From a virus (Duplodnaviria > Caudoviricetes): DNA of 54,565 nucleotides. The position numbers and the translations under genes were made by a program. The stretch spans positions 1 to 54,565 of IMG/VR virus record IMGVR_UViG_3300010388_000206. The stretch is one strand, 5' to 3'. The first letter of the stretch is position 1. Every line of letters begins with the position of its first letter. The notes under the pieces are model-generated. The model saw only the letters and a program-made list of their open reading frames with translations. It ran no database searches and was not told where the DNA came from. Below, one piece after another: positions 12,064 to 50,794 of this stretch.

Positions 12064-12092
12064 TTGACAGTTCCTTTCGAATCACCTATAGC
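12064..12092 (+). promoter_or_regulatory. sigma70-type promoter with CGAATCA in the spacer
   Basis: TTGACA-17-TATAGC. Confidence 0.7.
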
Positions 12093-12121
12093 AGGATCAA
12101 CGAAACGAAAGGAACTGTCAA
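12064..12121. repeat. perfect 16-bp inverted repeat covering the -35 box and the downstream RBS
   Basis: TTGACAGTTCCTTTCG / CGAAAGGAACTGTCAA. Confidence 0.85.
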
Positions 12122-12400
12122 ATGACCATCGAAATTCGCACCTCGGATTGCTCGTTTGTTAAATCAAACAAGGCTCTTTATGCTTCTGCACAAATGGAAG
12201 GGCTTGGTATTTCTGGACGGGGATATCCTAAGCAACTTTTTGTTACTTCTGATGTTACTGGTCGTTCTGTAAAGTTCGTTGCTATCAAAGAAGGTCATCC
12301 TCGTTTTGATTATGATTTCTGGGACGGTGAGATGGCTATCTATGAGCCTGTGATCGCTCTTCCCAATGTTGACATTCTGGTTATTAGTTATGGTATGTGA
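12122..12400 (+). CDS. hypothetical early protein
   Basis: Follows the promoter and AAGGA RBS. Confidence 0.75.
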   Translation: MTIEIRTSDCSFVKSNKALYASAQMEGLGISGRGYPKQLFVTSDVTGRSVKFVAIKEGHPRFDYDFWDGEMAIYEPVIALPNVDILVISYGM

Positions 12401-12800
12401 GAAGTACTTCAAGGTACTACAGAAAGTAGCTGAAGCCGTGGAGCCTGTGTCTAGAAGTAGACAGAGGCTTTCGGCATGTTTGGTCTACAAGAATGAGATT
12501 ATCGGGATGGGCTTCAACAAAAAGAAGTCGCATCCCTTTCAGCGTAAGTTCGCTAAACATGAAGAAGCTATCTATCTTCATGCTGAGATTGACGCTATCA
12601 AGAATGCACTGAAGGTTGTAGACGCTGAAACGATCAGCAAAAGCACCCTGTATGTTATGCGAGTGAAATACGAAGACACGAATGCAAAGAAGTTTGTGCG
12701 TGGTATGTCTAAGCCTTGCGAAGGGTGTGCACGTGCGATTGCACAGTTTGGTATCAAGAAGGTGTACTACACCACAGAAGAAGGATTTGATTATTTATGA
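12390..12800 (+). CDS. cytidine/deoxycytidylate deaminase-family protein
   Basis: HAEIDAI and SKPCEGC zinc motifs, GIKKVYY; start uncertain. Confidence 0.85.
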   Translation: MVCEKYFKVLQKVAEAVEPVSRSRQRLSACLVYKNEIIGMGFNKKKSHPFQRKFAKHEEAIYLHAEIDAIKNALKVVDAETISKSTLYVMRVKYEDTNAKKFVRGMSKPCEGCARAIAQFGIKKVYYTTEEGFDYL

Positions 12801-13432
12801 ATATACCTAAAAGTAGAAGCATTCCAGTAGAATATATCAAAGAATGCTTTGAATATCGTGAAGAAGAAGTTGATGGCGTTCTTCAAGGAAACGTGTATTG
12901 GAAGAATCGTGAAGATTTACCAAACTGGTGGAATACAAAATATACTGGTAAAAGGATTAAAAATATTACCACTAATGGATATTATGCAGTATCAATAAGA
13001 TACAATAATCTATCATGTCCTGTATCAATTCATACAATTATTTGGATTCTTAATCATGGTTGTTATCCGGATGATATGCTTGATCATAAAGATAACAATA
13101 GATTAAATAATCTTATATCTAATCTTAGACCAGCAGATGCATATTTAAACAATCTTAATACTCCCCCAATTTCAAATAGGCAAAGCCAATACAAAGGCGT
13201 AACTTTTACAAAAGATAAATTTAAGTGGCGTGTTAAATATAGTTTAAATGGAAAACTAAATCATGTTGGTTATTTTGTTGATGAACTAGAAGCAGCACTT
13301 GCTTATAATCAAGCAATCTCAAAGGTTCATAATACAGAGTATGCTTATATGAATGACATAAGTATGGGGTACACCAATCAAGTATATCCAAATATGCCCA
13401 GACATTATGAACCAGAAAAGGTAGCAGCATGA
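12797..13432 (+). CDS. HNH homing endonuclease with AP2 domain
   Basis: LDHKDNNRLNNLISNLR; SQYKGV...W...HVGYF...EAALAYN; AT-rich. Confidence 0.9.
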   Translation: MNIPKSRSIPVEYIKECFEYREEEVDGVLQGNVYWKNREDLPNWWNTKYTGKRIKNITTNGYYAVSIRYNNLSCPVSIHTIIWILNHGCYPDDMLDHKDNNRLNNLISNLRPADAYLNNLNTPPISNRQSQYKGVTFTKDKFKWRVKYSLNGKLNHVGYFVDELEAALAYNQAISKVHNTEYAYMNDISMGYTNQVYPNMPRHYEPEKVAA

Positions 13433-14253
13433 AGAATTTGATCATCGGTGGTTACACAAACTACCAGTACGACTTGATTAAGCCATGGGTAAAGTCCATT
13501 GGTGAAGTGTGTGATCCAGAGACAACCGACAAGGTAATGGTCGTTGGCAACACTACACAGGAAGCAATTGATGCGCTAACTGCTGATGGATGGATTCTCG
13601 TCCCTATGGCAGAAGGACAGCCACACGTGGTTCGTTTCTTCAGCATCTTTGACTATCTCAAGGACAACTGGCATAAGTACGAGTATGTTGTAACCACTGA
13701 TGTTCGTGACGTTATCTTTCAGGCTGATCCTTTCCAGTATTTAAAGGATGAACTTGGTCCACTAGGAATGGGATTTGGTCTTGTATGTGGCTCTGAGAGT
13801 ATTCAGTACAAGAATGAACCATGGGGCGATGAGAACCTTCTACAGTGCTATGGTCCTTATATCCATGCCCTATATAGGGACAAGGAAATCTATAATGTAG
13901 GTGTCCTTGGTGGTCGTTCTGAGTACGTCAAAGACTTGGTGCTCAACATTGCTATCAACTCTGTCAATCGTCCTATTCCGATTGTTGATCAAGCTGTTTT
14001 CAACATGCTTATGAACACACAGCCATATCAGGATTCAGTGTTCTTTGCAAGACAGGAAAACGCATGGGCATGTCAGGCTGGCACTGTTGCTGATCCTCGC
14101 CGTATGGATGAATTCCGTCCACACCTGCTAGAACCAGAACCAGTTTGGAAAGACGGTAAGGTGTACACATGGAATGGTGCGCTCTTTACAATCGTTCACC
14201 AGTATGATAGAGTTCCTGAATGGAATAAGGTGATTCAAGAAAGATATAAATGA
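13429..14253 (+). CDS. putative glycosyltransferase (GT-A-like)
   Basis: TDVRDVIFQADPF DxxD motif, YNVGVLGG, DQAVFN, HQYDR. Confidence 0.65.
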   Translation: MKNLIIGGYTNYQYDLIKPWVKSIGEVCDPETTDKVMVVGNTTQEAIDALTADGWILVPMAEGQPHVVRFFSIFDYLKDNWHKYEYVVTTDVRDVIFQADPFQYLKDELGPLGMGFGLVCGSESIQYKNEPWGDENLLQCYGPYIHALYRDKEIYNVGVLGGRSEYVKDLVLNIAINSVNRPIPIVDQAVFNMLMNTQPYQDSVFFARQENAWACQAGTVADPRRMDEFRPHLLEPEPVWKDGKVYTWNGALFTIVHQYDRVPEWNKVIQERYK

Positions 14254-15185
14254 TGGAAGTTTTGGTTATTGGTGGTTGTGGCTTCATTGGTTCGCATGTT
14301 GTTGATCGTCTCAAGATAGAAGGTCACAACGTGCGTATTGCTACACGCAACATTAAGAATATGACAGAGGACACTGTATACGTACCTAGATGGGGTAATC
14401 CTCGTACTGAAGACGTTACTATGTGTCTAGATGCACTTGACGGTGTAGATGGAGTCATTCATCTTGGATGTTCTTCTGTGCCGTCATCTTCCATCAATGA
14501 TCCTGTATCTGACATTCAAGATAATCTTTTCTCAACCATTCATCTACTAGAACTTATGCGTAAGAAGGGTGTAGACAATCTTGTCTATATGTCATCTGGC
14601 GGTGCAATTTATGGTAGTAGTATTTTGGCGATGGGCGAAAGTTATCCTTTAAATCCCCATAGTTCTTACGGAATTGTCAAGGCTACTTGTGAAAAGCATA
14701 TCCTGTTGGAATCAAGACTTCATGGATTGATCCCAACTATTCTTCGTCCATCAAATGTATATGGTCCTCGTCAAAAGGCTGGCGCACAAGGAATCATTGG
14801 CAACTTCCTATGGAATATTGCTAACGATAAGCCATGTGAAATCTTCGGTGATGGTAATAACGTTCGTGATTATATCTATGTAGAAGATGTTGCTCGTGCA
14901 TGTGTGTATGCACTTAATGGAAACAGCAACTACGGTAGAACCGCTGGTATCTACAATATAAGTAGTGGTGTGGGCCATAGCATCAATGAATTACTTCCCA
15001 TGATTGGAAAGGTTGTTGATAAGCCAGTTTCATTTGTGTATCGTGATGGTAGAAACTTTGATATCAGAAAAGTTATTCTCGAAAACGAAAAAGCAAAAAT
15101 TAACTTGGATTGGCGACCAAAGATTGATTTGAAGGAAGGTCTACAGAAGACTTGGGAATGGATTCAGGAGAATAATGGTGAGTAA
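14250..15185 (+). CDS. NAD-dependent epimerase/dehydratase (GalE-like)
   Basis: GGCGFIG, SSGGAIYG, YGIVK (YxxxK), NVYGP, RDYIYV. Confidence 0.92.
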   Translation: MMEVLVIGGCGFIGSHVVDRLKIEGHNVRIATRNIKNMTEDTVYVPRWGNPRTEDVTMCLDALDGVDGVIHLGCSSVPSSSINDPVSDIQDNLFSTIHLLELMRKKGVDNLVYMSSGGAIYGSSILAMGESYPLNPHSSYGIVKATCEKHILLESRLHGLIPTILRPSNVYGPRQKAGAQGIIGNFLWNIANDKPCEIFGDGNNVRDYIYVEDVARACVYALNGNSNYGRTAGIYNISSGVGHSINELLPMIGKVVDKPVSFVYRDGRNFDIRKVILENEKAKINLDWRPKIDLKEGLQKTWEWIQENNGE

Positions 15186-16125
15186 GAAAGTTTTAATTAC
15201 TGGTGGTAATGGTCTAGTTGCTACCTATCTGATCAATCAAATCATTAAGGAAACAGATTGGACAATTCATACCACTGTACGCACTAACCTGAATAGATTG
15301 CTTGATGTTGATGCGACGGAGGATGAGGGTGATCGTGCCATTATCTCACAAAAATATCGTGAAGGTCAGCATTATGATATCATCATTCATCTAGCGGCTG
15401 CTACTGATGTTGGTCAATCGATTATTGATCCAATGAAGTTTGTTCGAGAAAATATTGTCGAGACAGCCAAGCTATTAGAGTTTGCTCGTACTATTCCAAA
15501 TCTTGAAAAGTTTATTTTCATTAGCAGTAATGAAGTGTTTGGTCCAGCACCTTCTGATGTAAACTATTCAGAACTTGATCCGCTCAATCCACACTCACCA
15601 TATTCTGGTACCAAGGCGGCGGCTGAACAGCTATGTATTTCTTACTACAATACCTATAAGCTTCCAATCGACATTGTTCGTACCATGAATATTTTTGGTG
15701 AACGTCAAAACCACAATAGGTTTTTCCCTGTTTGTGTTCGTAAGATTTTGAACGGTGAACAGATTGACGTATACGATAACTTCCGCACATACATTCATGC
15801 TGAAGACGTTGCTGATGGTATCATGTTTATCATCAAGGGAGAATTCTTTTATCCCAAGTATGAGCACGAAGGTTGCCACAGATACCATATCGTAGGCAAC
15901 GAAGAAGTTAGCAACATTCGTATCGTCAAGGCAATTGGTGCTGCATTAGGAATTGAACCAAACTACAAAGTGGTATTTGATGGTAGGGCAGGTTATGAAA
16001 ACCGCTACTCTATGTCTGGTGCTAAGCTATATAGTATGGGATGGAAGCCAAAAGCAACTTTGGCACAACGAATTGAACAGATGGCTGTATGGTCAAGTGA
16101 GAATAGGAAATGGCTTTATGACTGA
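15175..16125 (+). CDS. NDP-sugar 4,6-dehydratase (RmlB-like)
   Basis: TGGNGLVA, HLAA, SSNEVFG, PYSGTK, NIFGERQ. Confidence 0.85.
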   Translation: MVSKKVLITGGNGLVATYLINQIIKETDWTIHTTVRTNLNRLLDVDATEDEGDRAIISQKYREGQHYDIIIHLAAATDVGQSIIDPMKFVRENIVETAKLLEFARTIPNLEKFIFISSNEVFGPAPSDVNYSELDPLNPHSPYSGTKAAAEQLCISYYNTYKLPIDIVRTMNIFGERQNHNRFFPVCVRKILNGEQIDVYDNFRTYIHAEDVADGIMFIIKGEFFYPKYEHEGCHRYHIVGNEEVSNIRIVKAIGAALGIEPNYKVVFDGRAGYENRYSMSGAKLYSMGWKPKATLAQRIEQMAVWSSENRKWLYD

Positions 16126-16585
16126 AGATAGTAGTGTGATTTTATCGCCTGTACTGAATATGAGAGATGTTGAGACTGTCAGGCACCATAGAAATGCCTG
16201 TAGAGAATTCATGACACGCAACACAGATTATATTTCTGCTCAACAGCAATCAAAGTGGTTTGATGGTCTTGACAAGAATACCAATCGTCTGCTATTGCTG
16301 AACAAGATACATCACGGTGCTGTAGTCGAAGATATCGGCTATGGGTACATTCGTATAGAAAATAGTGAGGTTCTTCTCACTGGTGGTATCACAAGTAATG
16401 AACGTGGAAAAGGACATGGTTTCTTTCTTTTTGAAAGATTGGTCCTACACTCATTAAAATATGGCTTGCCAATCCGCCTTGAAGTGTTAAAGACTAACGC
16501 TGCTGGCATTGCTACATATAAGAAGGTTGGCTTCAAAGTCATCAGTGAAGATGAAAAAATTTATAAGATGGAGTATAATGTATGA
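16118..16585 (+). CDS. GNAT N-acetyltransferase (PseH-like)
   Basis: RGKGHG acetyl-CoA motif, LEVLKTN..GIATYKKVGF. Confidence 0.85.
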   Translation: MTEDSSVILSPVLNMRDVETVRHHRNACREFMTRNTDYISAQQQSKWFDGLDKNTNRLLLLNKIHHGAVVEDIGYGYIRIENSEVLLTGGITSNERGKGHGFFLFERLVLHSLKYGLPIRLEVLKTNAAGIATYKKVGFKVISEDEKIYKMEYNV

Positions 16586-17661
16586 TCCCACTATTTAAGG
16601 TACGTATGAACGAAGAAGCACCTAAGCTTCTTGAGCCTGTTCTACTATCAGGTTTCATTGGACAGGGACCAAAGGTTGAAGAGTTCGAAGACAAGCTTCA
16701 AGAATGGCTTGGCACCGAAACCCGTCCTGTTACAGTCAATTCATGCACCAATGCAATTGACCTTGCTCTAGAGCTTTGTGGGGTTGGTGTTGGTGATGAA
16801 GTTATCGCTACTCCACAGACATGCTTTGCTTCACAGGTTGGTGCTATCCATCGTGGGGCTATTTTGCGTTGGGCTGATATCGATCCTATTACTGGTCTGA
16901 TGGACCCTGATTCTGCTGCTAAGCTTGTCAACGAAAAGACCAAGGCAATCATCGCTGTCAATTGGGCTGGTCGTTTCTGTGATTTTGATGCTCTTGGCAA
17001 CCTTGGTGTTCCTGTCATTGAAGACGCTGCTCATACATGGGATACATTCTTAGTCGATGAATATATTCCACGTGGTGATTATATCTGCTATAGTCTTCAG
17101 GCAATCAAGTTCCTAACATCTGGTGATGGTGGTATTTTGATTTGTCCTAATAAGGAAAAGGAAGCAGAAGCACGTGTCCTTCGTTGGTTTGGTCTTGACC
17201 GCACCAAGAACGAATCATTCCGCTGCACACAGAACATCACAAGGGCTGGCTTCAAGTATCATATGAATGATATCAATGCCACTATCGGTCTTGCTAACTT
17301 GGAGGCTTCATTTGATTCTGTTTGTATGAGCCGCTTCAACGCATTTGAAATCATCACAAAGGTTGATAATCCAAATCTTATCATGCCATATTGGGATGAC
17401 GATTGTTCATATTGGCTGTTCTCCATGCACGTCCTGAATGGTCGCAAGGCAGAATTCCAGAAGTATCTAGAGGACAATGGAATTGCTAGCAGTCCTGTCC
17501 ACTATCGTAATGACCTATATGACTGCACTATTCGTTTTGCTGAAAGTGATCTACCCGGCGTGACTGAATTTGACAAGACACAGGTCTGTATTCCAAACGG
17601 TTGGTGGGTAGATGATACTGCACTAAACCACATCATTAAGGTGCTCAATGAATTTAAGTGA
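16582..17661 (+). CDS. DegT/DnrJ/EryC1/StrS PLP-dependent sugar aminotransferase
   Basis: QGPKVEEFE, NSCTNA, IEDAAH, SLQAIK..TSGDGG, GFKYHM. Confidence 0.95.
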   Translation: MIPLFKVRMNEEAPKLLEPVLLSGFIGQGPKVEEFEDKLQEWLGTETRPVTVNSCTNAIDLALELCGVGVGDEVIATPQTCFASQVGAIHRGAILRWADIDPITGLMDPDSAAKLVNEKTKAIIAVNWAGRFCDFDALGNLGVPVIEDAAHTWDTFLVDEYIPRGDYICYSLQAIKFLTSGDGGILICPNKEKEAEARVLRWFGLDRTKNESFRCTQNITRAGFKYHMNDINATIGLANLEASFDSVCMSRFNAFEIITKVDNPNLIMPYWDDDCSYWLFSMHVLNGRKAEFQKYLEDNGIASSPVHYRNDLYDCTIRFAESDLPGVTEFDKTQVCIPNGWWVDDTALNHIIKVLNEFK

Positions 17662-18334
17662 AATAGAATATATCGTATGCATTCCATCGGCACTCGCTCC
17701 TAATACAGGGGCGGTGCCTTTGGCAGAACGACTTGAACAGACTTTGGTTGGTATTGAATCGATCAGAGCTAAGTTCCCTAACGTCTTTATCATCCTAGCA
17801 GACTGTTCTGTTCTTCCTGCGAATGAACAACGTGAGATTGTGTCTAAGCAAGTTGATCTTTACATGGATCATTCGAACGTAGATATCAATCGACAGCTAA
17901 GTGAAGCTGGTCTCAAGAGCCATTCTGAGCTAATCATGTTCAATAGCATGTATAGCTGGATCAAGCAGAACCAAGAGAACTTTCCTAGCCTAAAGCGTAT
18001 CTTTAAGGTTGGTGGTCGTATGAAGGTATCAGATGAGTTTGATATCAAGGACTATGAAGGCGATAACGTCAAGGATAAGTATGTCTTCAAACATCCTCTA
18101 AACTCATGGATCAGTCCAGAGCTTATGCTATATGAGAACCGCCTATGGTCCCTTGACATTAGCTTGCTTGATGATTATCTTTCAAAGATTCAAGACATGT
18201 ACAACTCGTTTGATGGTCGCTTTGATATCGAACATACATACTACAAGCATCTTGACCCTGCCAATGTAGAGTTATTTGATGATGTTTGGGTTGAAGGTAT
18301 CATGGCACTTTATGGTACATTCGTAAAGGATTGA
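17648..18334 (+). CDS. hypothetical protein, probable glycosyltransferase-like
   Basis: Inside the sugar operon; ERLEQT...IESIR, IFKVGGR, DIEH. Confidence 0.55.
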   Translation: MNLSEIEYIVCIPSALAPNTGAVPLAERLEQTLVGIESIRAKFPNVFIILADCSVLPANEQREIVSKQVDLYMDHSNVDINRQLSEAGLKSHSELIMFNSMYSWIKQNQENFPSLKRIFKVGGRMKVSDEFDIKDYEGDNVKDKYVFKHPLNSWISPELMLYENRLWSLDISLLDDYLSKIQDMYNSFDGRFDIEHTYYKHLDPANVELFDDVWVEGIMALYGTFVKD

Positions 18335-18343
18335 TGACCAGAT

Positions 18344-19108: not shown

Positions 19109-19112
19109 TTAT

Positions 19113-20871: not shown

Positions 20872-20879
20872 TATAAATA
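20872..20879 (+). promoter_or_regulatory. T4-type late promoter TATAAATA
   Basis: Exact consensus right after the terminator. Confidence 0.85.
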
Positions 20880-22655: not shown

Positions 22656-22663
22656 TATAAATA
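22656..22663 (+). promoter_or_regulatory. T4-type late promoter TATAAATA
   Basis: Exact consensus. Confidence 0.85.
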
Positions 22664-30604: not shown

Positions 30605-30633
30605 TTGACAGCCCCTTGCTGAGTCGTTATAAT
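30605..30633 (+). promoter_or_regulatory. consensus sigma70 promoter with TGAGTCG in the spacer
   Basis: TTGACA-17-TATAAT. Confidence 0.85.
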
Positions 30634-40096: not shown

Positions 40097-40112
40097 AAAG
40101 GAATCCCATGAG

Positions 40113-40499
40113 TTGTCTAAGGTACTAGAGCACAAGCATCTGATCGTAAGAGCAGAACTAAACAATCCACCAACATGTGCAGAAGCCATCCAAGAATGGA
40201 TGAAGAAACTTGTGGATAAGATTGGAATGAAAATTCTCATGGGGCCATATGCAGTGTATTCTGATATGGTTGGTAATCGTGGTTTGACCGCAGTTACTAT
40301 CATTGAGACGAGTCATATAGCCATGCATGTATGGGATGAAGACGAACCAGCACTTATGCAACTTGATGTGTATACTTGCAGTACTTTAAATATAAGTGAT
40401 GTTTTTGAAGCAATTGAAGAATTCAAGCCTGTAAAAGTAGAATATAAGTACATTGACAGAGAAAATAGTCTGTTTATACTTGACAAGAAAATAGATTGA
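40113..40499 (+). CDS. speD: pyruvoyl-dependent S-adenosylmethionine decarboxylase-family protein
   Basis: HKHLI, IIETSHIAMHVW autocleavage region, LDVYTC; TTG start. Confidence 0.8.
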   Translation: MSKVLEHKHLIVRAELNNPPTCAEAIQEWMKKLVDKIGMKILMGPYAVYSDMVGNRGLTAVTIIETSHIAMHVWDEDEPALMQLDVYTCSTLNISDVFEAIEEFKPVKVEYKYIDRENSLFILDKKID

Positions 40500-40508
40500 T
40501 CGTATATA
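40480..40508 (+). promoter_or_regulatory. sigma70-type promoter
   Basis: TTGACA-17-TATATA. Confidence 0.6.
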
Positions 40509-40550
40509 CCCTATAGGGTATAAACACAGAATATACCCTATAGGGTATAT
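40505..40550. repeat. two copies of the palindrome TATACCCTATAGGGTATA (operator-like)
   Basis: Copies at 40505-40522 and 40532-40549. Confidence 0.9.
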
Positions 40551-40588
40551 AACAGTAGTGGTGTTAAATATGAAAGGTGATGTTAAAT

Positions 40589-41853: not shown

Positions 41854-41930
41854 TACGTATAGAAACTCCTTGACATGCCTCATGGATGCTGTAATATGAC
41901 CAATCGACTTATAGTGTCCATGAGGAATGT

Positions 41931-43402: not shown

Positions 43403-43431
43403 ATACATGATGAAATATAAGGTATGATAAT

Positions 43432-44289: not shown

Positions 44290-44301
44290 TAGGAAAATAT
44301 A

Positions 44302-44715: not shown

Positions 44716-44731
44716 CATTACCGGAGCATTT

Positions 44732-44893
44732 ATGAGTAAGAAGTTTTCACGCACAAAGTTCGATGATTTCCATGATGACGATGATTACAATGGATATCAC
44801 GATAATTTGAAAGAACGCAGAAAGCTAAAAAGAATGAAAAATGCGATCAAAACTCGCAACATTGATTCTCTCATGGACTTGGATGAATATTAA
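44732..44893 (+). CDS. small hypothetical protein (53 aa)
   Basis: Read from sequence; GGAG RBS; TAATG coupling. Confidence 0.65.
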   Translation: MSKKFSRTKFDDFHDDDDYNGYHDNLKERRKLKRMKNAIKTRNIDSLMDLDEY

Positions 44894-45195
44894 TGCCAAC
44901 TTATACCTTTAGAGATAAAACAACTGGCGAAGAATGGGATGAATTCCTGTCCTTCGCTGGTCGTGAATCTCGTCTCCAAGATTCCAATATCGAACAAGTA
45001 CCGTGTGCGCCAAATTTCATATCTGGTATTTCAGGCGTAACACATAAGACCGATGGTGGTTTCAACGACATGCTTTCTCGTGTCGCTGATGCAAACCCAC
45101 ACTCACCCCTTGCCCAGACACATGGGAATAAGGGTATCAAAGAAACCAAGACTAGGGAAGCTGTTAACAAAGCAAGAGCAAAGCAGCCTTTTTAG
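44893..45195 (+). CDS. hypothetical protein (FmdB-like N-terminus MPTYTF)
   Basis: MPTYTFRD...DGGFNDML. Confidence 0.7.
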   Translation: MPTYTFRDKTTGEEWDEFLSFAGRESRLQDSNIEQVPCAPNFISGISGVTHKTDGGFNDMLSRVADANPHSPLAQTHGNKGIKETKTREAVNKARAKQPF

Positions 45196-45248
45196 AAAAT
45201 CGTATAGATTATGCTTCAGTGATAACACTAACAACACTAGGAGCCAAT

Positions 45249-46004
45249 ATGGTAGCCAGAAGCACTCAGCGTTTAACTAAAAGACAACAAAGACTAGCTG
45301 AAAAAGGAACAATAAAACTCGTGCCATCTATCAAGCAACAACACTTTGATTTGAAAGAAATATATCCTATCACAGACAATCAACTAAAAACATTTGATGC
45401 TTATGATGATGGTAAAAATTTGTTCTTACATGGTTGTGCTGGTACTGGCAAGACATTCATTTCCATGTTTCTCGCTCTAAACCAAATCATGAATGAGAGA
45501 ACCAAGCTAAAAAAGTTGGTTATTATTCGCAATACACAGTCTTCTAAAGATCAAGGATTTCTACCGGGTAATGTCAAAGAAAAAGGCGAAGTTTTCGAAG
45601 CAGCATATAGAGCCATCTGCTGCGAGTTGTTCAACCGTGATGATGCTTATGACATACTTAAGCAAAAAGGAATCATCGAATTCCACACCACATCATACCT
45701 TCGTGGAACCACAATCGAAGACGCAATCATCCTAGTTGATGAAGTTCAGAATCAACGCTATGTCGAGTTGAGAACTGTCTTGACAAGAACCGGAGATAAC
45801 AGTAGGGTGATTCTTTGCGGTGATACGAAGCAGGATGACCTGTCTTCAACTCGCTACAACGAAGTGTCCGGTCTTAAGGATATGATGAAAGTGTTCGAAC
45901 GTATGGGCTTCATGACTACCGTTCAGTTTGGTATTGATGACATTGTGCGTTCTGGCTTTGTGAAGTCGTTTATTATCGCTGAGTATGAATTAGGTCTATA
46001 TTGA
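45249..46004 (+). CDS. phoH: PhoH-family ATPase
   Basis: GCAGTGKT, GFLPG, RGTT, DEVQN, GD..Q.D, DIVRS. Confidence 0.94.
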   Translation: MVARSTQRLTKRQQRLAEKGTIKLVPSIKQQHFDLKEIYPITDNQLKTFDAYDDGKNLFLHGCAGTGKTFISMFLALNQIMNERTKLKKLVIIRNTQSSKDQGFLPGNVKEKGEVFEAAYRAICCELFNRDDAYDILKQKGIIEFHTTSYLRGTTIEDAIILVDEVQNQRYVELRTVLTRTGDNSRVILCGDTKQDDLSSTRYNEVSGLKDMMKVFERMGFMTTVQFGIDDIVRSGFVKSFIIAEYELGLY

Positions 46005-46018
46005 TAAGGAATTAAATC

Positions 46019-46372
46019 ATGTTGATGGAAATTACTGCAATTGAAGATACCGAAGAATACGAACTTCCTTCGTATAGGGACAAGGGCAATATCACAGTAG
46101 AAGTTGTTGACAAGTGTGACAACTATGGTTGGGCAGTTGATAACTATACCTATGATAGTCATGCTTCTCCGTTTTGGGTAGAAGAAGGTATTGGTATTCG
46201 ATATTTTGTATATCTCCATCAACATGATATTCCATGTGAAGGGTTCTGGACTTTTGAAGGTGTTCATGGCGAATACATCAAGGGTGATTGGGGCTATACA
46301 GATGATGATGAAGAGTGGTACTATGACCGTGTACGTCCTGCCACTCAGGAAGAAATTGATGAACTTTTATGA
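46019..46372 (+). CDS. acidic hypothetical protein
   Basis: AAGGA RBS. Confidence 0.75.
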   Translation: MLMEITAIEDTEEYELPSYRDKGNITVEVVDKCDNYGWAVDNYTYDSHASPFWVEEGIGIRYFVYLHQHDIPCEGFWTFEGVHGEYIKGDWGYTDDDEEWYYDRVRPATQEEIDELL

Positions 46373-46383
46373 AGGAATTAAAT

Positions 46384-46548
46384 ATGGATAAGCGTGAATT
46401 TATACAGCGTTATATGATTAAACATTATGATCAGAATGAAAACTATTTTCATCAGATTGAAGTGGCTACTTCTGTCTTCAATGCGATTGAAGAGAATCTG
46501 GCAAAGGATGTAGCCTCTGCCAATCTTTGGGACTACAATGACAAGTAA
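46384..46548 (+). CDS. small hypothetical protein
   Basis: Read from sequence; alternative start 46369. Confidence 0.55.
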   Translation: MDKREFIQRYMIKHYDQNENYFHQIEVATSVFNAIEENLAKDVASANLWDYNDK

Positions 46549-47213
46549 TGTTCAAACTTGACCTTATAGAACTCCAAAGTCTTAGACAGATTAATGGACC
46601 GAAAAGATACTATGAATTGCCTGATGGTAAGAAGTATCCATCTGTTACAACAATCCTTAGTGCCATGTCAGATAAGTCTTTCCTTGTAAGATGGAAAGAA
46701 AGAGTTGGCGAAGAGGAAGCGAATCGAAAGCTTGTTCAAGCTTCTGCTCGTGGTACAGCGGTCCATGCAATCTGTGAAAAGTATGTGTTAAATCAACCCG
46801 TCGATATGTCTGGTGAAATGCCTCTGACAACTCGTTGTTACAATCAACTGAGAAACTTTGTCAGAGATAACGTCAACAACATTCGAAGCTCTGAGGGTCA
46901 GTTATACTCACATACTCTAAAGACTGCTGGTTCTGTCGATCTGGTGGCTGATTATCGTGGAATGCCATCCATCATTGATTTCAAAACATCTGAAAAAGAA
47001 AAAAGAGAAGATTGGATTGAGAACTATTTTCTCCAAACATCCATGTACTCATACATGCTTTGGGAGAGAACCGGATTGCTATATCCGAACATCGTCGTTG
47101 CCATTGGTGTAGACGAACTAAACGAAGCACAAATCTTTGTCCGTAAAGCTAAGGACTATCTACCAAAGGCAAAGAAGATTTGTGCAGAATATCATGAAAG
47201 GTTTGAAAAATGA
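46548..47213 (+). CDS. PD-(D/E)XK exonuclease
   Basis: YPSVTTIL, RGTAVH, AGSVD, IIDFKTS, YFLQ..MY. Confidence 0.9.
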   Translation: MFKLDLIELQSLRQINGPKRYYELPDGKKYPSVTTILSAMSDKSFLVRWKERVGEEEANRKLVQASARGTAVHAICEKYVLNQPVDMSGEMPLTTRCYNQLRNFVRDNVNNIRSSEGQLYSHTLKTAGSVDLVADYRGMPSIIDFKTSEKEKREDWIENYFLQTSMYSYMLWERTGLLYPNIVVAIGVDELNEAQIFVRKAKDYLPKAKKICAEYHERFEK

Positions 47214-47620
47214 GTGACATTAATCTAAACAAGTACGCAGACTTCACATTCGAACTAGCATCAATGGCTAGTAAGGATTTGGACACTCTTATTGAACGTC
47301 TTCGTGAACTTGATCAAAATAAAACTGTGAACATTGCATTGCTGATGACAGGCGGTTTTGGTCTTGGTAGTGAAGGTGGAGAGTTTCAGGAAATCGTCAA
47401 GAAGATTCTATTTCAGGGTAAGCCTCTGAATAATGATAATATCTGGCACATGAAGCGTGAACTTGGTGATATCGCATGGTATTGGGTAAATGCCTGTAAT
47501 GCCTTGGGTCTTGATCCAAATGAAGTGATTGCTGAGAATGTCGAGAAGCTGAAGGCACGTTACCCCGGCGGTGATTTTGATCCTTATTACAGTGAGAATC
47601 GTAAGGAAGGCGATTTATGA
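47210..47620 (+). CDS. mazG: MazG-like nucleotide pyrophosphohydrolase
   Basis: EGGEFQEIVKK, RELGDIAWY, KLKARYP. Confidence 0.9.
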   Translation: MSDINLNKYADFTFELASMASKDLDTLIERLRELDQNKTVNIALLMTGGFGLGSEGGEFQEIVKKILFQGKPLNNDNIWHMKRELGDIAWYWVNACNALGLDPNEVIAENVEKLKARYPGGDFDPYYSENRKEGDL

Positions 47621-48144
47621 TCAATAAGAAGACCGTTGAAATCAGACGTGGTATGAAGGGAAACCATAAGGATTGTGATTATAATGAAAAAAGCATTTAT
47701 GATCCTCTAGCCAAGGAGGCAATGATAAGGTCTCTAAACAAAACATTTCCTAACCTAACCCATATCGAAAATCCTAACCCATATGGTATTGATGTTCTTT
47801 CTATTAATGAAGACGGGAAAGTTACTGCTTGTTGGGAGTTAGAAGTTCGTCATGGAAACTGGCAGGGAAACAATCCATTCCCTTTCGATAAAGTAAACTG
47901 CATCGAACGTAAAGAACATCAATGGCTTAGAGACCAAGAATTTTTGGATGGCATCCCATATGAGATGGCTGATAAGTACAAGGTTTTTTATGTTCAGATG
48001 AACAAGGAATGCACCAGAGCGGTTATTATCAAGGATAGCACTGTCCTCAAACATGAATTAAAATCATGGGATAATCGTAAGCAACAGGGTGAATTTGTTA
48101 GACAAGTTCCGATTAAAGAAACATTTCAAATAAAATTGAGTTGA
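47617..48144 (+). CDS. hypothetical protein, possible PD-(D/E)XK nuclease fold
   Basis: YGIDVL...WELEVR. Confidence 0.6.
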   Translation: MINKKTVEIRRGMKGNHKDCDYNEKSIYDPLAKEAMIRSLNKTFPNLTHIENPNPYGIDVLSINEDGKVTACWELEVRHGNWQGNNPFPFDKVNCIERKEHQWLRDQEFLDGIPYEMADKYKVFYVQMNKECTRAVIIKDSTVLKHELKSWDNRKQQGEFVRQVPIKETFQIKLS

Positions 48145-48169
48145 CATTAAAATCGAGTCGTTTTATATG
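48141..48169 (+). promoter_or_regulatory. early sigma70-type promoter with CGAGTCG
   Basis: TTGACA-17-TATATG followed by the TCAACAAGACGGAAGG leader. Confidence 0.75.
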
Positions 48170-48197
48170 TCTGTCAACAAGACGGAAGGTAAACGAA

Positions 48198-48353
48198 ATG
48201 ACCATTCAAGACCTCATCAATGCTCTTCAGGCTAACGTCGATAACTACAATGTTATCATCAATAACCCTGATAGCGATGCCGATCATGTCGAACGACTGA
48301 AGCGTGTAGTTGTTGGTTATGAAGCAGATATTCGTGAACTGAAAGGTGAATAA
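48198..48353 (+). CDS. small early hypothetical protein
   Basis: GAAGG RBS. Confidence 0.7.
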   Translation: MTIQDLINALQANVDNYNVIINNPDSDADHVERLKRVVVGYEADIRELKGE

Positions 48354-48546
48354 GATGGAATATGCAACCTTCGCAACACCAGTTAATCCGAAATGGCCAG
48401 ACTATGGTTGTAACATCTATAAAGATGGCATTTTCATTGAAGGCCGCATCTATCATAACTACAGTGGTAACGCTATGATGGATGAAGTCAAAGACCTTAA
48501 AAGGTTTACATTCCCTGTATCTGAGGGCTACGAAGTAAGGTGGTAA
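48346..48546 (+). CDS. hypothetical protein
   Basis: 66-aa ORF overlapping its neighbours. Confidence 0.7.
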   Translation: MNKMEYATFATPVNPKWPDYGCNIYKDGIFIEGRIYHNYSGNAMMDEVKDLKRFTFPVSEGYEVRW

Positions 48547-48548
48547 AT

Positions 48549-48989
48549 ATGAAAAAGGGTGAACTTCTAGGTAAAGTCCTTGTACTGGCAACCAATGCAC
48601 ATGCAGGACAGTTTGATCGTGGTGGCAAGCCATACATTCTTCACCCTTTGAAGGTTATGCACTATCTCAAGAGTGATGATGAAGAACTTCAGTGTATGGC
48701 TCTTCTTCATGACGTGGTAGAGGATACCAAAACGACTTGGGATGACCTTCGTAGTATCGGGTGCACAGAACGTGTGATCAATGGCGTGAAGTCACTCACC
48801 AAGATGCCGGGTGAAAGCTACGATCAGTATAAGGAACGTGTTTTTGCCAATGAAGATGCGATGAAGGTAAAGATGGCTGACCTTCGTCACAACACAGACA
48901 TTCGCAGACTCAAGGGGGTTACGGAAAAGGATATTATCCGCATGGAGAAATACAACCGCTTCTACCTTGAGCTTCAAGCCAAAGTCTAA
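48549..48989 (+). CDS. HD-domain hydrolase, SpoT/Mesh1-like small alarmone hydrolase
   Basis: AHAGQ.DRGG.PYILHP, LLHDVVEDT, VKMADLRHN. Confidence 0.85.
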   Translation: MKKGELLGKVLVLATNAHAGQFDRGGKPYILHPLKVMHYLKSDDEELQCMALLHDVVEDTKTTWDDLRSIGCTERVINGVKSLTKMPGESYDQYKERVFANEDAMKVKMADLRHNTDIRRLKGVTEKDIIRMEKYNRFYLELQAKV

Positions 48990-48991
48990 AG

Positions 48992-49023
48992 AAATCCCTC
49001 AGAGAAATCTGGGGGATTTTTTT
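48992..49023 (+). terminator. intrinsic terminator (GAAA loop)
   Basis: AAATCCCTCAGA-GAAA-TCTGGGGGATTT followed by T-tract. Confidence 0.85.
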
Positions 49024-49034
49024 GCATTCTTGTG

Positions 49035-49063
49035 TTGACACGAATCACGAATCATTTTATATA
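49035..49063 (+). promoter_or_regulatory. early promoter with tandem CGAATCA
   Basis: TTGACA-CGAATCACGAATCATTT-TATATA. Confidence 0.8.
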
Positions 49064-49093
49064 AGGTTCAACAAGACGAGAAGGAACATTGAC

Positions 49094-49477
49094 ATGGCTT
49101 ACATGAACCAAGAGATGAAGAAGGCAATTGCTCCGGTTGTGAAGAACATCCTGAAGAAGTATGGTGTTAAGGGTACTCTCAGTATCCGGAACCATAGCAC
49201 TCTGGTGCTCAATATCACTGAAGGCAATATCAACTTCTGCGAAAACTATTTTCGTGACAGCAAAAATGAGTGTGATCACATTACGGTTAATCGTTATTGG
49301 TTTCATGAGCATTTTGATGGTGTTGCTAAGGCTTGTCTGTCTGAAGTGATCGAAGCCATGAACAAAGGTAACTGGAATAACAGCCGTATTGAAGTTGACT
49401 ATTTTGATGCTGGTTGGTTTATCGATGTGAACATTGGTAAGTGGAATAAGCCCTACAAATACAGCGAGGCGGCATGA
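49094..49477 (+). CDS. early hypothetical protein
   Basis: AAGGA RBS; VDYFDAGWF..VNIGKWNKPY. Confidence 0.8.
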   Translation: MAYMNQEMKKAIAPVVKNILKKYGVKGTLSIRNHSTLVLNITEGNINFCENYFRDSKNECDHITVNRYWFHEHFDGVAKACLSEVIEAMNKGNWNNSRIEVDYFDAGWFIDVNIGKWNKPYKYSEAA

Positions 49478-49614
49478 TAGTTTATATTGTAATGGTGAAT
49501 GGTAAGGTTGACGCTGTATTTTTCAACGAAGACCTTGCCAAAAACCATAAAAAGAATATGACCAAGCAATGGAAATTGACTGAGATTATCAAAAAAGAAG
49601 TTTACGACTTTTAA
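49474..49614 (+). CDS. small hypothetical protein (46 aa)
   Basis: Read from sequence; ATGA overlap. Confidence 0.6.
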   Translation: MIVYIVMVNGKVDAVFFNEDLAKNHKKNMTKQWKLTEIIKKEVYDF

Positions 49615-49625
49615 AGGAATTTGAA

Positions 49626-49832
49626 ATGAAAAGTGATCGTGAATATCGTGAATCGTTGGACCTTCCTATGGAAGACCTTACCATGGCTCTTTTTGGTTAT
49701 AATGGTGACGGCGAAGCTCTTGAAGATTGGCAGATTGTCGAACGTGCTGCTACCAAGATCATTATGCTCAAGGAAATGGTCCTTGCTACTGGTATGAGTG
49801 AAGCCCTTCTGAAGGCTTGTATGGAGAACTGA
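49626..49832 (+). CDS. hypothetical protein
   Basis: AAGGA RBS. Confidence 0.75.
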   Translation: MKSDREYRESLDLPMEDLTMALFGYNGDGEALEDWQIVERAATKIIMLKEMVLATGMSEALLKACMEN

Positions 49833-49833
49833 T

Positions 49834-50052
49834 ATGGAATATGATTTTGAACAATTTGCAGAAGCCTTTGAGTTTCTTGACGAACTTCGTGAGTCTGGAC
49901 AAGTCAACATGTTTGGTGCAACATCTTATGTTGTATCTGAACTTGGACATGACAAGGCCACTGCGAGGAACCTTGTTACGGCATGGATGAAATCGTATGA
50001 CGGTGTTTCGACACCTGAAGATCGTGCGAAATCTTTTGAAAATAATTATTGA
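49834..50052 (+). CDS. hypothetical phage protein
   Basis: FLDELRESGQVNMFGA motif. Confidence 0.8.
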   Translation: MEYDFEQFAEAFEFLDELRESGQVNMFGATSYVVSELGHDKATARNLVTAWMKSYDGVSTPEDRAKSFENNY

Positions 50053-50076
50053 CTCCATATCGGCATAGTGTATAAT
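50049..50076 (+). promoter_or_regulatory. early sigma70-type promoter
   Basis: TTGACT-16-TATAAT (with TG extension) followed by the TCAACAAGACGGAAGG leader. Confidence 0.7.
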
Positions 50077-50105
50077 CACCTCAACAAGACGGAAGGATAT
50101 ACACT

Positions 50106-50756
50106 ATGTCGATTTTTCTTAACTCTGATCAAATTCAAGATATCGCCCATGAAAATGGTGTGACTTATCGGGTTGCAGACCTTTATGCTGAGTATGTCGC
50201 AAAGGCCAAGCAGAAGAACATGGTTCTTAACATGGGGCGTAATACCCTTCGTGACAGCACCCGTCAGAAGACCTACAATGCTGAGAACAAGTTCATGGCG
50301 ATGTATGGTCGTGGTACCGTCTTCTATACTGTAGAAGAAGCTCAGAAGTTTGCTGACAAGGTGTTTGCTTCCAGTGTATGGGAAAAGCACAAAACCAATC
50401 GTGTTAGCAACCGTGCTCCTACAATTGAATATTCCAGCAAAATGACTCGCTACAGCGGTATGGCTTATAGCAACCGTATTGTGCTTGGTCGCAACGGCAT
50501 GAATGCCTACATCCTGCTTCATGAACTGGCTCATACTAATGGTCATCGTCATCATGATGCTACTTTCCGTAAGTGCCTTGTTGCCTTTGTCGCCAAGTTT
50601 ATGGGTAAGGAACATGGTGATCTTCTCAAGCAGAGCTTCAAGGAAGCTGGTCTTAAGATGACTGTACCTGCTGCCAAGACCGTGAAGGATTTCAAGGATT
50701 GGTACGCATTCTATAAGAGGGCTGAAGTCGCTCGTTACGCACGAAACAATTTTTAA
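50106..50756 (+). CDS. HEXXH zinc metallopeptidase-like protein
   Basis: ILLHELAH....HHDATF. Confidence 0.75.
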   Translation: MSIFLNSDQIQDIAHENGVTYRVADLYAEYVAKAKQKNMVLNMGRNTLRDSTRQKTYNAENKFMAMYGRGTVFYTVEEAQKFADKVFASSVWEKHKTNRVSNRAPTIEYSSKMTRYSGMAYSNRIVLGRNGMNAYILLHELAHTNGHRHHDATFRKCLVAFVAKFMGKEHGDLLKQSFKEAGLKMTVPAAKTVKDFKDWYAFYKRAEVARYARNNF

Positions 50757-50765
50757 AATTAATTG

Positions 50766-50794
50766 TTGACACGAATCAACGAATCAACTACTGT
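50766..50794 (+). promoter_or_regulatory. early promoter with two CGAATCA
   Basis: TTGACA-CGAATCAACGAATCAAC-TACTGT. Confidence 0.8.

Follow-up and report, generated by a model that had tools for sequence, protein, structure and literature searches.

GcrA-type heptamers in the spacers of phage early promoters suggest use of a host cell-cycle activator

The window, that is, the whole 54,565-nucleotide stretch of phage DNA that was analysed, raises the question why several of its promoters carry a heptamer with GANTC between their -35 and -10 hexamers, and which protein might read it. A sequence-only reading had proposed that these heptamers are sites for GcrA and that the phage infects an alphaproteobacterial host.

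Promoters and heptamers in the window

The five promoters and seven heptamers that had been described are all present at the stated positions. As had also been noted, the box nearest the -10 hexamer stops 1-3 bp short of it in each promoter, and the final T is missing from three of these five hexamers. All features given here lie on the plus strand. An early promoter at 12064..12092 (-35 TTGACA, 12064-69; -10 TATAGC, 12087-92) carries one box, CGAATCA, at 12078-84 (centre about -18); read on the other strand, this heptamer is TGATTCG. The promoter drives a 92-aa ORF (12122-12400), followed by a dCMP-deaminase and sugar-gene cluster. Promoter and box are kept in G001, G003, L088 and L089, and the box is gone from the G002 ortholog. 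Upstream of the primase gene (30677-31717) lies a consensus promoter, TTGACA-17-TATAAT (30605..30633; TTGACA 30605-10, TATAAT 30628-33), with TGAGTCG at 30620-26 in its spacer. The primase promoter of close relatives has no spacer box; L005-L008 have CGATTCG directly 3' of the -10 instead, a turnover of the box from spacer to downstream position, and L003/L004 have TTGACTC plus a CGAATCA farther downstream.

The early promoter at 48141..48169 (-35 TTGACA, 48141-46; -10 TATATG, 48164-69) holds CGAGTCG at 48154-60 (centre about -19), and the leader TCAACAAGACGGAAGG and a 51-aa ORF (48198-48353) come next; the promoter's orthologs in G001 and G005 have CGAATCA or CGAATCG in the same position. Two tandem CGAATCA boxes, at 49041-47 (centre about -26) and 49048-54 (about -19), were found in the early promoter at 49035..49063 (-35 TTGACA, 49035-40; -10 TATATA, 49058-63), which drives a 127-aa ORF (49094-49477, phrog_10415). 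Directly upstream, an intrinsic-terminator-like hairpin with a T run (48987..49024) marks a transcription-unit boundary. The early promoter at 50766..50794 (-35 TTGACA, 50766-71; weak -10 TACTGT, 50789-94) also has two CGAATCA boxes (50772-78 and 50780-86) and drives a 112-aa ORF (50829-51167). In its orthologs in G001, G004 and G005, the first box is kept and the second mostly kept.

A sixth promoter had been added to this group because of a GACTC overlapping its -35. The GACTC is there, but its heptamer, TGACTCC, does not fit YGAKTCK, and this promoter (TTGACT-16-TATAAT, 50049..50076; -35 50049-54, -10 50071-76), which drives a 216-aa ORF (50106-50756), has no GcrA-type box; in the G001 ortholog, the spacer contains TAGAATCGG. 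No box was found in the other intergenic TTGACA promoters of the window, namely two overlapping ones (40453 and 40480, spanning 40453..40508), followed by the palindrome TATACCCTATAGGGTATA, repeated twice, and TTGACA-16-TAATAT at 41870..41897, whose spacer pairs with the Shine-Dalgarno region of a 370-aa ORF (41931-43043).

Enrichment, flanks and position of the word

The GcrA consensus was given by Haakonsen 2015 as 'TGATTCG or, more broadly, YGAKTCK', and Wu 2018 describes contacts of the GcrA DNA-binding domain with all seven positions of TGATTCG. The sequence-only reading had used YGAKTCG, a form that does occur in later structural papers but is narrower than the original consensus. For GcrA-activated promoters of Brevundimonas subvibrioides, only a weak bias towards C ahead of GANTC and no extended preference are described; therefore, the extended word is not universal.

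In the window alone, the signal is modest: GANTC lies within the next 17 nt of 6 of the 45 plus-strand TTGACA sites, against 1.4 expected, and the probability of at least five TTGACA sites with a nearby GANTC is 0.013. A generic sigma70 consensus scan of 40000-54565 found no excess (34 sites against 37.3 in shuffles) and missed the promoters at 48141 and 49035 because it demanded a T at -7. The signal becomes overwhelming when five related IMG/VR contigs are taken together with the window (311 kb). YGAKTCK was found 39 times in the interval -31..-10 of 67 cassettes, where 0.93 were expected, and 16 times (0.46 expected) in the 33 spacer clusters obtained by dereplication at 70% spacer identity, which bears out the positional enrichment that had been put forward as a check. 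The flanking bins of the 67 cassettes (-120..-36 and +1..+120) showed no YGAKTCK excess. Every one of the 39 GANTC sites that fall entirely within -31 to -10 fits YGAKTCK, the genome-wide figure being 269 of 694 (39%); six of the eight YGAKTCK variants are present, and the 24 remaining NGANTCN classes are all missing. The phage heptamers match the GcrA word at all seven positions, its three degenerate ones included.

Unbiased k-mer enrichment in the 33 dereplicated spacers gave CGAATCA and CGAATCG as top heptamers. In the same spacers, CGAATC was the top hexamer of 4096 (9 of 33, 0.1 expected, P 8e-16), and GA.TC ranked first among 256 XYNZW patterns. With no promoter definition applied, CGAATC was still the third most enriched hexamer across all intergenic DNA of the window and the five contigs. 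GANTC is kept in 15 of the 33 clusters, against about 1 expected; the other 18 have no box, which means that roughly half of the equally good promoters do without one. The final T of the -10 is present in only 12 of 25 promoters after dereplication. The heptamers in the spacers are thus confirmed as real, and more firmly than the sequence-only reading could have seen.

With the -10 hexamer taken as -12..-7, 11 of 17 dereplicated sites have their centres at -17 to -19 and three at -26, and the strand bias is strong, 14 of 16 sharing one orientation. Published GcrA boxes are described with spacer centres at -20±1 and -30±2 (in PcsM, GAATC at -22..-18), and the main position agrees with the -20 class. 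The distal box, centred at -26, or at -27/-28 should the transcription start lie 7-8 nt past the -10, is at or beyond the edge of the -30±2 class. The distance of 7-8 bp from one mode to the other is not one helical turn; two boxes in one promoter may help, according to the GcrA literature. Among promoters, the offset ranges from spacer base 2 to base 12 in unrelated spacer contexts, and this variable placement, together with the turnover between orthologous promoters, would be the signature of a tethered reader. A second box directly after the -10 (centre about -3), in XM05, G011 and G014, has no counterpart among the described GcrA positions.

Recurrence in other phages and the host

Many boxed promoters are also present in G011, G013 and G014, none of which resembles the window at the DNA level. 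The unrelated lineages came from a scan for the motif itself, and only one of them could be linked to cultured phages; the primase protein of G013 is 90.5% identical to that of Erythrobacter phage XM05. The same design is present in three cultured phages of Sphingomonadales (Alphaproteobacteria), namely XM05 and L02 of Erythrobacter and RXM of Citromicrobium. The phages that share it have no DNA similarity and few genes in common, which favours a host factor over a phage-encoded regulator. TTGACN followed by YGAKTCK within 21 nt occurs 42 times in XM05 (7.3 expected) and 28 times in RXM (2.6), and control counts were 20 in phiM12 (12.7), 11 in DLP6 (6.3) and 0 in the first 50 kb of Cr30 (2.4). 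TTGACN{1,12}CGAATC was found 17 times in RXM, 13 times in XM05 and 10 times in L02, the reversed pattern 0 times; nine non-alphaproteobacterial phages had 0-3 each, and the design was not seen in them. It is also absent from the alphaproteobacterial phages Cr30, phiM12, Atu_ph07, Ochrobactrum OC, HMO-2011 and CRP-804; therefore, an alphaproteobacterial host alone is not sufficient. We argue that the boxed design may track the host rather than the phage lineage.

All sequencing runs with DNA of this phage are freshwater or lake metagenomes. Phages of many different hosts lie at equal distance from its core genes; gp43 shares 46% identity with that of phiM12, 45% with DLP6, 45-46% with cyanophages and 39% with Cr30, and the nearest UvsX proteins are those of Stenotrophomonas and Xanthomonas phages. 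One accessory protein has its best cultured-phage matches in Ochrobactrum OC and Caulobacter Cr30, and another in Agrobacterium Atu_ph07 (55%) and Sinorhizobium phages; together with the scarce final T of the -10, they may hint weakly at Alphaproteobacteria.

The reader of the word and known systems

A search for gcrA and ccrM homologs, also suggested earlier, came back empty in the clade and the box-bearing cultured phages: PF07750 (GcrA) stayed below cut-off in G000-G005 and in XM05, L02, Lacusarx, RXM and RHph_I1_18, and neither the clade's about 105 kb nor the complete genomes of XM05, L02 and RXM yielded a CcrM-class methylase. As no GcrA homologue was found in the available sequence of these phages, a host factor would be the simplest reader. 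GcrA activation in Caulobacter needs methylation, and for virion DNA the host would be the only visible source of a CcrM-class methylase. The further proposal that replication switches the early genes off is pure speculation.

We infer GcrA as the reader, activation as the effect and an alphaproteobacterial host. The heptamers are probably GcrA boxes in sigma70-type early promoters of a lytic T4-like phage, the host possibly being a sphingomonad. Apart from the GACTC of the sixth promoter, the core of the sequence-only reading, namely GcrA-type boxes in the spacers and an alphaproteobacterial host, gains substantial indirect support, and that reading as a whole is supported in part. In such hosts, GcrA would ride on sigma70 domain 2, and its DNA-binding domain, on a flexible linker of roughly 60 residues, would search for YGAKTCK near the core promoter; a word in the spacer would stabilise polymerase binding and open-complex formation. 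With one or two of the highest-ranked words, near -19 and near -26, the phage would equip promoters whose -35 is already perfect, whose upstream region is A/T-rich and whose -10 often lacks the -7 T, and so capture GcrA-loaded holoenzyme for its earliest genes. This suggests that these phages borrow the host cell-cycle activator to start infection; if true, early expression would be strongest in host cells that hold GcrA, i.e. in replicating ones.

The box might instead be the operator of another protein with GcrA-like specificity, be it a phage early regulator such as a repressor sitting in the spacer or another host factor. The spacer is a classic repressor site, the boxes at 49041-54 and 50772-86 are tandem direct repeats with 7-8 bp spacing, those directly after the -10 in XM05 and G014 fit steric blocking better than the described GcrA positions, and a large part of the clade's genome lies outside the sampled sequence (CheckV completeness 33-56%). 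However, the agreement with the GcrA word at every position, the sharing of the design by dissimilar phages and the lack of a GcrA-family gene in five complete cultured genomes make this unlikely. Direct reading by the RNA polymerase or sigma70 of some bacterial group, as a core-promoter element with no accessory factor, would suit the confinement to the spacer, the single prevailing orientation and the concentration at two positions, but it is improbable, as elements read by fixed parts of the holoenzyme do not wander over ten spacer bases and about half of the equally good promoters do without the word.

Several cassettes are clearly paralogous, with the common leader and near-identical spacers (e.g. 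CGAATCACGAATCATTA and CGAATCACAAATAGTTT), and XM05 has about 25 near-identical ones, so that the word might have been inherited as a passenger of a mobile or duplicated promoter cassette, like the promoter-early stem-loop cassettes of T4-type phages, rather than selected. This is very improbable given the excess that persists after dereplication, the occurrence in unrelated spacers at differing offsets and the recurrence in unrelated phages. Hardly credible is a constraint from RNA structure, in which -35 and spacer pair with the ribosome-binding site in read-through transcripts and the box lies in the stem. Strong hairpins of this kind, with the Shine-Dalgarno region as partner, are predicted for the promoter at 12064 (-24.8 kcal/mol, z -6.6) and for that at 41870, which has no box (-29.0, z -6.4), but the stem at 12064 takes in only the CG of the box, the two-box promoter at 49035 is unstructured (z +0.96), which largely refutes the idea there, and in the stems predicted at 50766 the boxes and the ribosome-binding site are not paired with each other.

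Our literature search found no paper on GcrA-type boxes in phage early promoters, and the closest systems each share some features with the GcrA boxes proposed here. T4-type phages have strong sigma70 early promoters with A/T-rich upstream regions ahead of many small early ORFs, and repeated promoter-early stem-loop cassettes whose hairpins hide the ribosome-binding site in read-through transcripts, all of which resembles the present arrangement. To our knowledge, the T4 early consensus has no GANTC word, unlike the spacers here, and the T4-like Caulobacter phage Cr30 has TTTACTT...TATAGTT-like upstream motifs without boxes. Mu mom is a methylation-sensing phage promoter (Dam/OxyR), and here, too, promoter activity could follow N6-adenine methylation of the phage's own DNA; the methylase would be CcrM acting on GANTC, the reader an RNAP-tethered activator and the targets early genes, methylation itself being hypothetical.

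The GcrA promoters of Caulobacter crescentus (PcsM, PmipZ), as described, share the sigma70 -35/-10 core, the YGAKTCK word with TGATTCG on top, a spacer box near -20, variable placement and occasional double boxes. In contrast to these, the phage promoters lie on lytic phage genomes with a perfect TTGACA, two boxes are common whereas Caulobacter targets mostly have one, the distal mode is at -26 and not -30, and in some lineages a box immediately follows the -10. Mascolo et al. 2022 (PMC9437464) described control of phage genes by CtrA boxes in Alphaproteobacteria, cite phiCbK-like phages as having GcrA homologues and Sinorhizobium phages as having CcrM analogues, and report no positional asymmetry for GcrA sites in their PSSM scan of alphaproteobacterial phage genomes. 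Sites for a host cell-cycle master regulator in phage promoters would be common to both cases, but regulator and word differ, and the present sites were found by their place within the spacer and not by genome-wide distribution.

The window phage, its relatives and their boxed promoters

The window, a whole IMG/VR record of 54,565 bp, is linear, has a GC content of 40% and represents part of a T4-like phage genome, with a CheckV completeness estimate of 33%. It codes for a family-B DNA polymerase with 45-46% identity to cyanomyophage gp43, a UvsX homologue whose best identity (61.6%) is to UvsX of Stenotrophomonas phage DLP6, a gp41-type helicase, a primase and a class I ribonucleotide reductase, and the + strand carries nearly all genes. 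T4-type late promoter words TATAAATA were located in intergenic DNA at 20872-20879, directly after a terminator-like hairpin, and at 22656-22663. Window DNA is contained in freshwater and lake metagenome runs of several studies, with no RNA run among those listed. The host was not decided by tblastn of gp43, UvsX and two accessory proteins, which returned relatives from mixed hosts, and the DegT aminotransferase was uninformative on this point, with at most 47% identity to genome contigs of scattered phyla. No nucleotide match to a cultured phage was obtained by megablast with 20 kb of the window, one promoter cassette gave chance matches only in blastn against cultured phages, and a 628-aa window protein had no tblastn match. 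The window has no tRNA genes, and a search for contigs prolonging it leftwards gave no close relative.

Five IMG/VR contigs related to the window (G001-G005) were reached via the primase (88-90% identity) and two small early proteins; together with the window they form a clade of 311 kb. Besides the replication genes, the window has two separate dCMP/cytidine deaminase-like genes (1329-1748 and 12366-12800), the former with 46-48% identity to genes of the cultured phages XM05 and RXM and of contig G013, and mobile nuclease genes for an HNH endonuclease and an endonuclease VII (12797-13432 and 19847-20284). A nucleotide-sugar gene cluster at 14250-19108 comprises two epimerase/dehydratases, a DegT-type aminotransferase and a family 2 glycosyltransferase, and further genes of this kind lie in G001 (89.7-92.1 kb), one resembling a glucose-1-phosphate nucleotidyltransferase and one for a 4,6-dehydratase. 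The same contig carries a SegE-like GIY-YIG gene (77128-77775) and, in its early/middle region (61260-65096), two neighbouring large HEAT-repeat proteins of 726 and 545 aa, adjoined by NAD-salvage genes (NAMPT and an NMNAT-Nudix fusion).

Predicted sigma70 cores of the type TTGACA-17-TAnnnn, with spacers inside the 16-18 bp range, start at 12064, 30605, 48141, 49035 and 50766. These five promoters and their seven GANTC heptamers lie exactly where the sequence-only reading had placed them, and two further points of its description were confirmed: the proximal heptamer stops 1-3 bp short of the -10 element in all five, and the final T is missing from three of the -10 hexamers. All sites are intergenic, 25-45 nt 5' of a Shine-Dalgarno sequence and an ATG, and are kept in relatives. 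They are marked as putative promoters by this intergenic place, an A/T-rich upstream region, conservation and a terminator, which for the promoter at 49035 lies directly 5' of it (48987-49024). Among the 45 TTGACA hexamers on the + strand of the window, six have GANTC in the next 17 nt (1.4 expected), a moderate signal. A generic consensus scan found no excess of promoter-like sites (34 versus 37.3 in shuffles); it misses two of the five boxed promoters because it demands a T at -7. Intergenic TTGACA promoters devoid of a box are predicted at 40453, 40480 and 41870. The tandem pair at 40453 and 40480 is directly followed by two copies of the palindrome TATACCCTATAGGGTATA, 18 bp apart (40493-40560), which resemble a pair of operators or a leader with RNA structure.

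For the whole clade, promoters were collected by a rule blind to GANTC, namely TTGAC[AT], a spacer of 16-18 nt and a -10 element with TA and at most two mismatches, followed within 80 nt by a Shine-Dalgarno sequence and then the ATG of an open reading frame of at least 40 aa; this rule leaves out the window promoters at 30605 and 50766. The census yielded 67 cassettes in 311 kb, falling into 33 clusters at 70% spacer identity, of which 15 contain GANTC, and in a stricter census without the -10 requirement 11 of 25 dereplicated promoters were boxed. An unbiased k-mer count over the 33 representative spacers ranked CGAATC first of 4096 hexamers (9/33, 0.1 expected), with CGAATCA and CGAATCG as the top two heptamers, and GA.TC first of 256 XYNZW patterns (14 versus 0.94 expected). 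The positional enrichment for which the sequence-only reading had proposed a test was found: YGAKTCK, counted on either strand between -31 and -10, was present 39 times in the 67 cassettes (0.93 expected) and 16 times in the 33 representatives (0.46 expected). The bins covering -120 to -36 and +1 to +120 of the cassettes, +1 to +30 included, all lacked an excess. Also when no promoter definition was used, CGAATC was the third most enriched intergenic hexamer of the clade, surpassed only by the late-promoter word TAAATA, which ranks first, and by T runs; 35 of its 97 copies lie in intergenic DNA, which makes up 7% of the total.

Some clade cassettes are plainly paralogous, with a common leader and near-identical spacers. 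The box is also found at varied offsets in unrelated spacers of G001 (65178, 68652, 81053, 81742, 97034 and, inverted, 85213), and point changes gain or lose it between orthologous promoters. The box of the primase promoter lies inside the spacer in the window; at four loci of close relatives (L005-L008) CGATTCG stands just past the -10 element, and at two others (L003/L004) CGAATCA stands farther downstream. As judged from these comparisons, the boxes are not just inherited cassettes.

Agreement with the GcrA word and its position

According to the available text of Haakonsen et al. (2015), in which all 32 NGANTCN classes were ranked, the GcrA ChIP consensus is TGATTCG and the broader word YGAKTCK. 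The crystal of the GcrA DNA-binding domain on TGATTCG, as presented in the available part of Wu et al. (2018), has contacts to all seven positions. On the bottom strand, the phage word reads Y(T>C)-G-A-T(>>G)-T-C-G(>T) and has the same three degenerate positions as the GcrA word, with the same two bases at each. All seven window boxes fit YGAKTCK, as do 39 of 39 spacer GANTC sites versus 269 of 694 (39%) genome-wide; six of the eight YGAKTCK variants and none of the 24 other NGANTCN classes are present in spacers. GACTC arising from TTGACTC over the -35 element was seen in three cases, none of YGAKTCK type. One of them is at the promoter at 50049, named as a sixth promoter in the sequence-only reading. 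For Brevundimonas, the accessible portion of Adhikari et al. (2021) reports no extended preference except for a weak bias towards C just before GANTC, which warns that genera may differ in their extended GcrA word.

Published GcrA box centres, in the source text available, are at -20±1 or -30±2 within the spacer or between +5 and +30, and the PcsM box GAATC is placed at -22 to -18 (Wu et al., available part). With the -10 hexamer taken as -12 to -7, box centres in the clade are at -17 to -19 in 11 and at -26 in three of 17 dereplicated sites; transcription starts assumed 7-8 nt past the -10 element shift the proximal mode to -18 to -21 and the distal one to -27/-28. On these assumed starts, the predicted proximal mode fits the published position. 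The distal mode is 1-4 bp nearer than published, at or beyond the edge of the range, and 7-8 bp separate the two modes. According to Wu et al., GcrA acts as a monomer that has a long, flexible linker, and a second box may be of help.

Boxed promoters in other phages and the candidate reader

The pattern TTGACN{1,12}CGAATC had 0, 1, 3, 1 and 1 matches in five more distant T4-like relatives (G006-G010). A scan of IMG/VR for TTGACACGAATC-N11-TA returned mainly single chance matches and few multi-match loci, which besides relatives of the window were the contigs G011, G012, G013 and G014, with nucleotide similarity to the window in short stretches only. G012, a T4-like contig, was rejected as a further case, as only two of its 18 promoters had a YGAKTCK-type spacer. 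Many further boxed promoters were found in G011, G013 and G014, which were beyond the reach of the search pattern because their boxes are near -18. The primase of G013 led to cultured phages, all of them siphoviruses of Sphingomonadales: its identity is 90.5% to the primase of Erythrobacter phage XM05, 70% for Erythrobacter phage vB_EliS-L02, 65% for Sphingobium phage Lacusarx and 53% for Citromicrobium phage vB_CbaS-RXM. The pattern was counted 13 times in XM05, 10 times in L02, twice in Lacusarx and 17 times in RXM, and the reversed pattern 0 times; YGAKTCK within 21 nt after TTGACN occurred 42 times in XM05 (7.3 expected) and 28 times in RXM (2.6 expected). On the minus strand of XM05 (78-96 kb), about 25 near-identical cassettes are arranged in tandem gene units, with the structure gaaaaagtgc-TTGACC-GAATCGGTGGAG...TAGAAA-CGAATCAcc...GGAGA...ATG and two GcrA-type words, one abutting the -35 element and one directly past the -10 element. 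In RXM, consecutive cassettes with a box near -19 occupy 1.5-9.2 kb, inside the 10,992-bp terminal repeat that its genome paper describes. By sequence criteria, the boxed design is common to several phage lineages.

In phages with hosts outside Alphaproteobacteria, the pattern had few matches (DLP6, KLEP7, VPs20 and Melnitz 0, Bordetella CN1 1, Moby 2, Variovorax V45v66 and Synechococcus S-SM2 3 each, Xanthomonas BUDD 3 with 2 for the reversed pattern), and C48C1, whose host is unrecorded, had 3. Among phages of alphaproteobacterial hosts, phiM12 had 7 matches in 195 kb and a box in one of 18 census promoters, and the others had 3 (Atu_ph07, in 490 kb), 3 (Ochrobactrum OC), 4 (RHph_I1_18) and 0 (HMO-2011 and CRP-804). 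In its first 50 kb, Cr30, a low-GC T4-like Caulobacter phage considered as a precedent, is free of boxes and has upstream motifs of another kind. Since phages of Alphaproteobacteria without the design exist, it is not general among them, and of the 20 cultured phages examined only three, all from Sphingomonadales, had a high pattern density. Matches per 100 kb amounted to 12.8 in the window, 20.1 in G001, 19.8 in G011, 36.6 in G013, 100 in G014, 16.3 in RXM and 8.6 in XM05, versus 3.6 in phiM12 and 0 in DLP6. In cellular DNA, the GcrA domain PF07750 was present in 32 of 151 sampled Pseudomonadota genomes; these 32 had about 2-3 matches per Mb (approximately 329 in total, counted by hand), not more than the other genomes, a comparison uninformative either way because coding sequence dominates and the reversed-pattern control is unmatched to coding sequence.

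The observed/expected ratio of GANTC (clade 0.56-0.74, RXM 0.56, XM05 0.94, G014 2.38, Cr30 1.44) is too variable among phages to be used as an indicator. Over the whole window, the ratio is 0.68 for GANTC and 0.41 for both TANTA and CGNCG, and CCNGG is strongly depleted (14 observed, 86.8 expected, ratio 0.16).

A search for gcrA and ccrM homologues, which the sequence-only reading had suggested for the rest of the genome, gave neither PF07750 above cut-off nor the CcrM-class methylase domain PF01555 in the window or G001-G005. PF07750 was likewise not found above cut-off in the complete genomes of XM05, L02, Lacusarx, RXM and RHph_I1_18, nor PF01555 in these five and in G011-G015, and Pfam scans of 20 larger proteins from an extra 50 kb of G001 gave no CcrM-class methylase. 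G004 codes on the opposite strand (26.7-27.4 kb) for a GIY-YIG endonuclease with helix-turn-helix repeats; a sub-threshold GcrA match in this contig (E 0.011) was dismissed as the helix-turn-helix tail of a GIY-YIG homing endonuclease. Because no GcrA-family gene was found in these phages, a host factor common to the hosts of unrelated phages would be the simplest reader of the box, and as no CcrM-class methylase was found in them either, any methylation of the box must come from host CcrM. The idea of the sequence-only reading that the incoming genome is methylated and that replication could switch early genes off gained no support from these searches and met no contrary evidence. In vitro, GcrA is reported to bind methylated double-stranded probes with a Kd only 1.4- to 1.7-fold lower than without methylation, and GcrA is described in the available part of PMC9437464 as widely conserved among Alphaproteobacteria whose genomes are not reduced.

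Interpretation and comparison with known systems

The GcrA/CcrM pair is the textbook example of how bacteria control their cell cycle epigenetically, and no protein other than GcrA is known to have YGAKTCK-type specificity. The GcrA word proposed in the sequence-only reading stands as an observation and was generalised beyond the window. The promoters are probably GcrA-box early promoters of an alphaproteobacterium's phage, in which case a known class of promoter would be put to a new use. The main rival, considered unlikely, is another spacer-binding protein that has the same specificity and reads the box. RNA structure might also constrain the spacers, and it accounts for some of them, because the hairpins at 12060-12126 (-24.8 kcal/mol, z -6.6) and 41866-41935 (-29.0 kcal/mol, z -6.4) pair the -35/spacer region with the Shine-Dalgarno region of the driven gene, but it leaves the two-box promoter at 49035 unexplained. 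In the folding model, the ribosome-binding site would be hidden in read-through RNA and free in locally started RNA. Both hairpins are long and perfect, and like pairings occur in G001 (52654 and 70349) and G004 (1744).

Beyond the preferred reading of GcrA activation, it is tentatively proposed, as a possibility rather than a probability, that a class of phage early promoters with one or two top-affinity GcrA words in the spacer has evolved independently in lytic lineages of alphaproteobacterial phages and acts as an epigenetic and cell-cycle gate. The independent lineages would be the lake T4-like myoviruses and the Lacusarx/CbK-like siphoviruses of Erythrobacter and Citromicrobium. Having no GcrA or CcrM of their own, these phages would sense the cell-cycle state of the host (GcrA in replicating cells) as soon as infection begins, and perhaps also how their own DNA had been methylated before. 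The GcrA grammar, a tethered monomeric reader on a methylated 7-mer in the spacer, is so far known for chromosomal genes only.

Full-text literature searching, including the available parts of PMC9437464, PMC9127768 and PMC8953757, returned no paper linking GcrA words to phage promoters. Mascolo et al. 2022 (PMC9437464, available part) described control by CtrA boxes in phages of Alphaproteobacteria, and their GcrA-matrix scan of the same genomes gave 'no evidence of asymmetry'. Promoters are not discussed in the available text of the L02 and RXM genome papers. If the proposal is true, phage infection of Alphaproteobacteria would be coupled to host S phase from the first transcripts, and the boxed promoter would be a sequence-only marker of alphaproteobacterial hosts for uncultured freshwater and marine phages. 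The dense near-consensus cassettes would then be a natural test set for box position, number and methylation versus GcrA activation, and the cultured pairs of XM05 and L02 with Erythrobacter and of RXM with Citromicrobium allow a direct test.

A conserved leader TCAACAAGACGGAAGG follows the -10 element of several window promoters (48172-48187, 49066-49084 and 50079-50094). A very similar leader, GTCAACAAGAGGAG, is found past boxed promoters of the unrelated RXM (1.5-8 kb), and XM05 has CAACAACGGAGA; this likeness could stem from independent adaptation to one host machinery or from promoter cassettes passed between phages. In T4-type phages, the promoter-early stem-loop cassette consists of an early promoter and a stem-loop and is repeated between small early open reading frames. 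Set against this definition, cassettes with a common leader recur in the clade, and strong stems are predicted at 12064 and 41870 but not at 49035.
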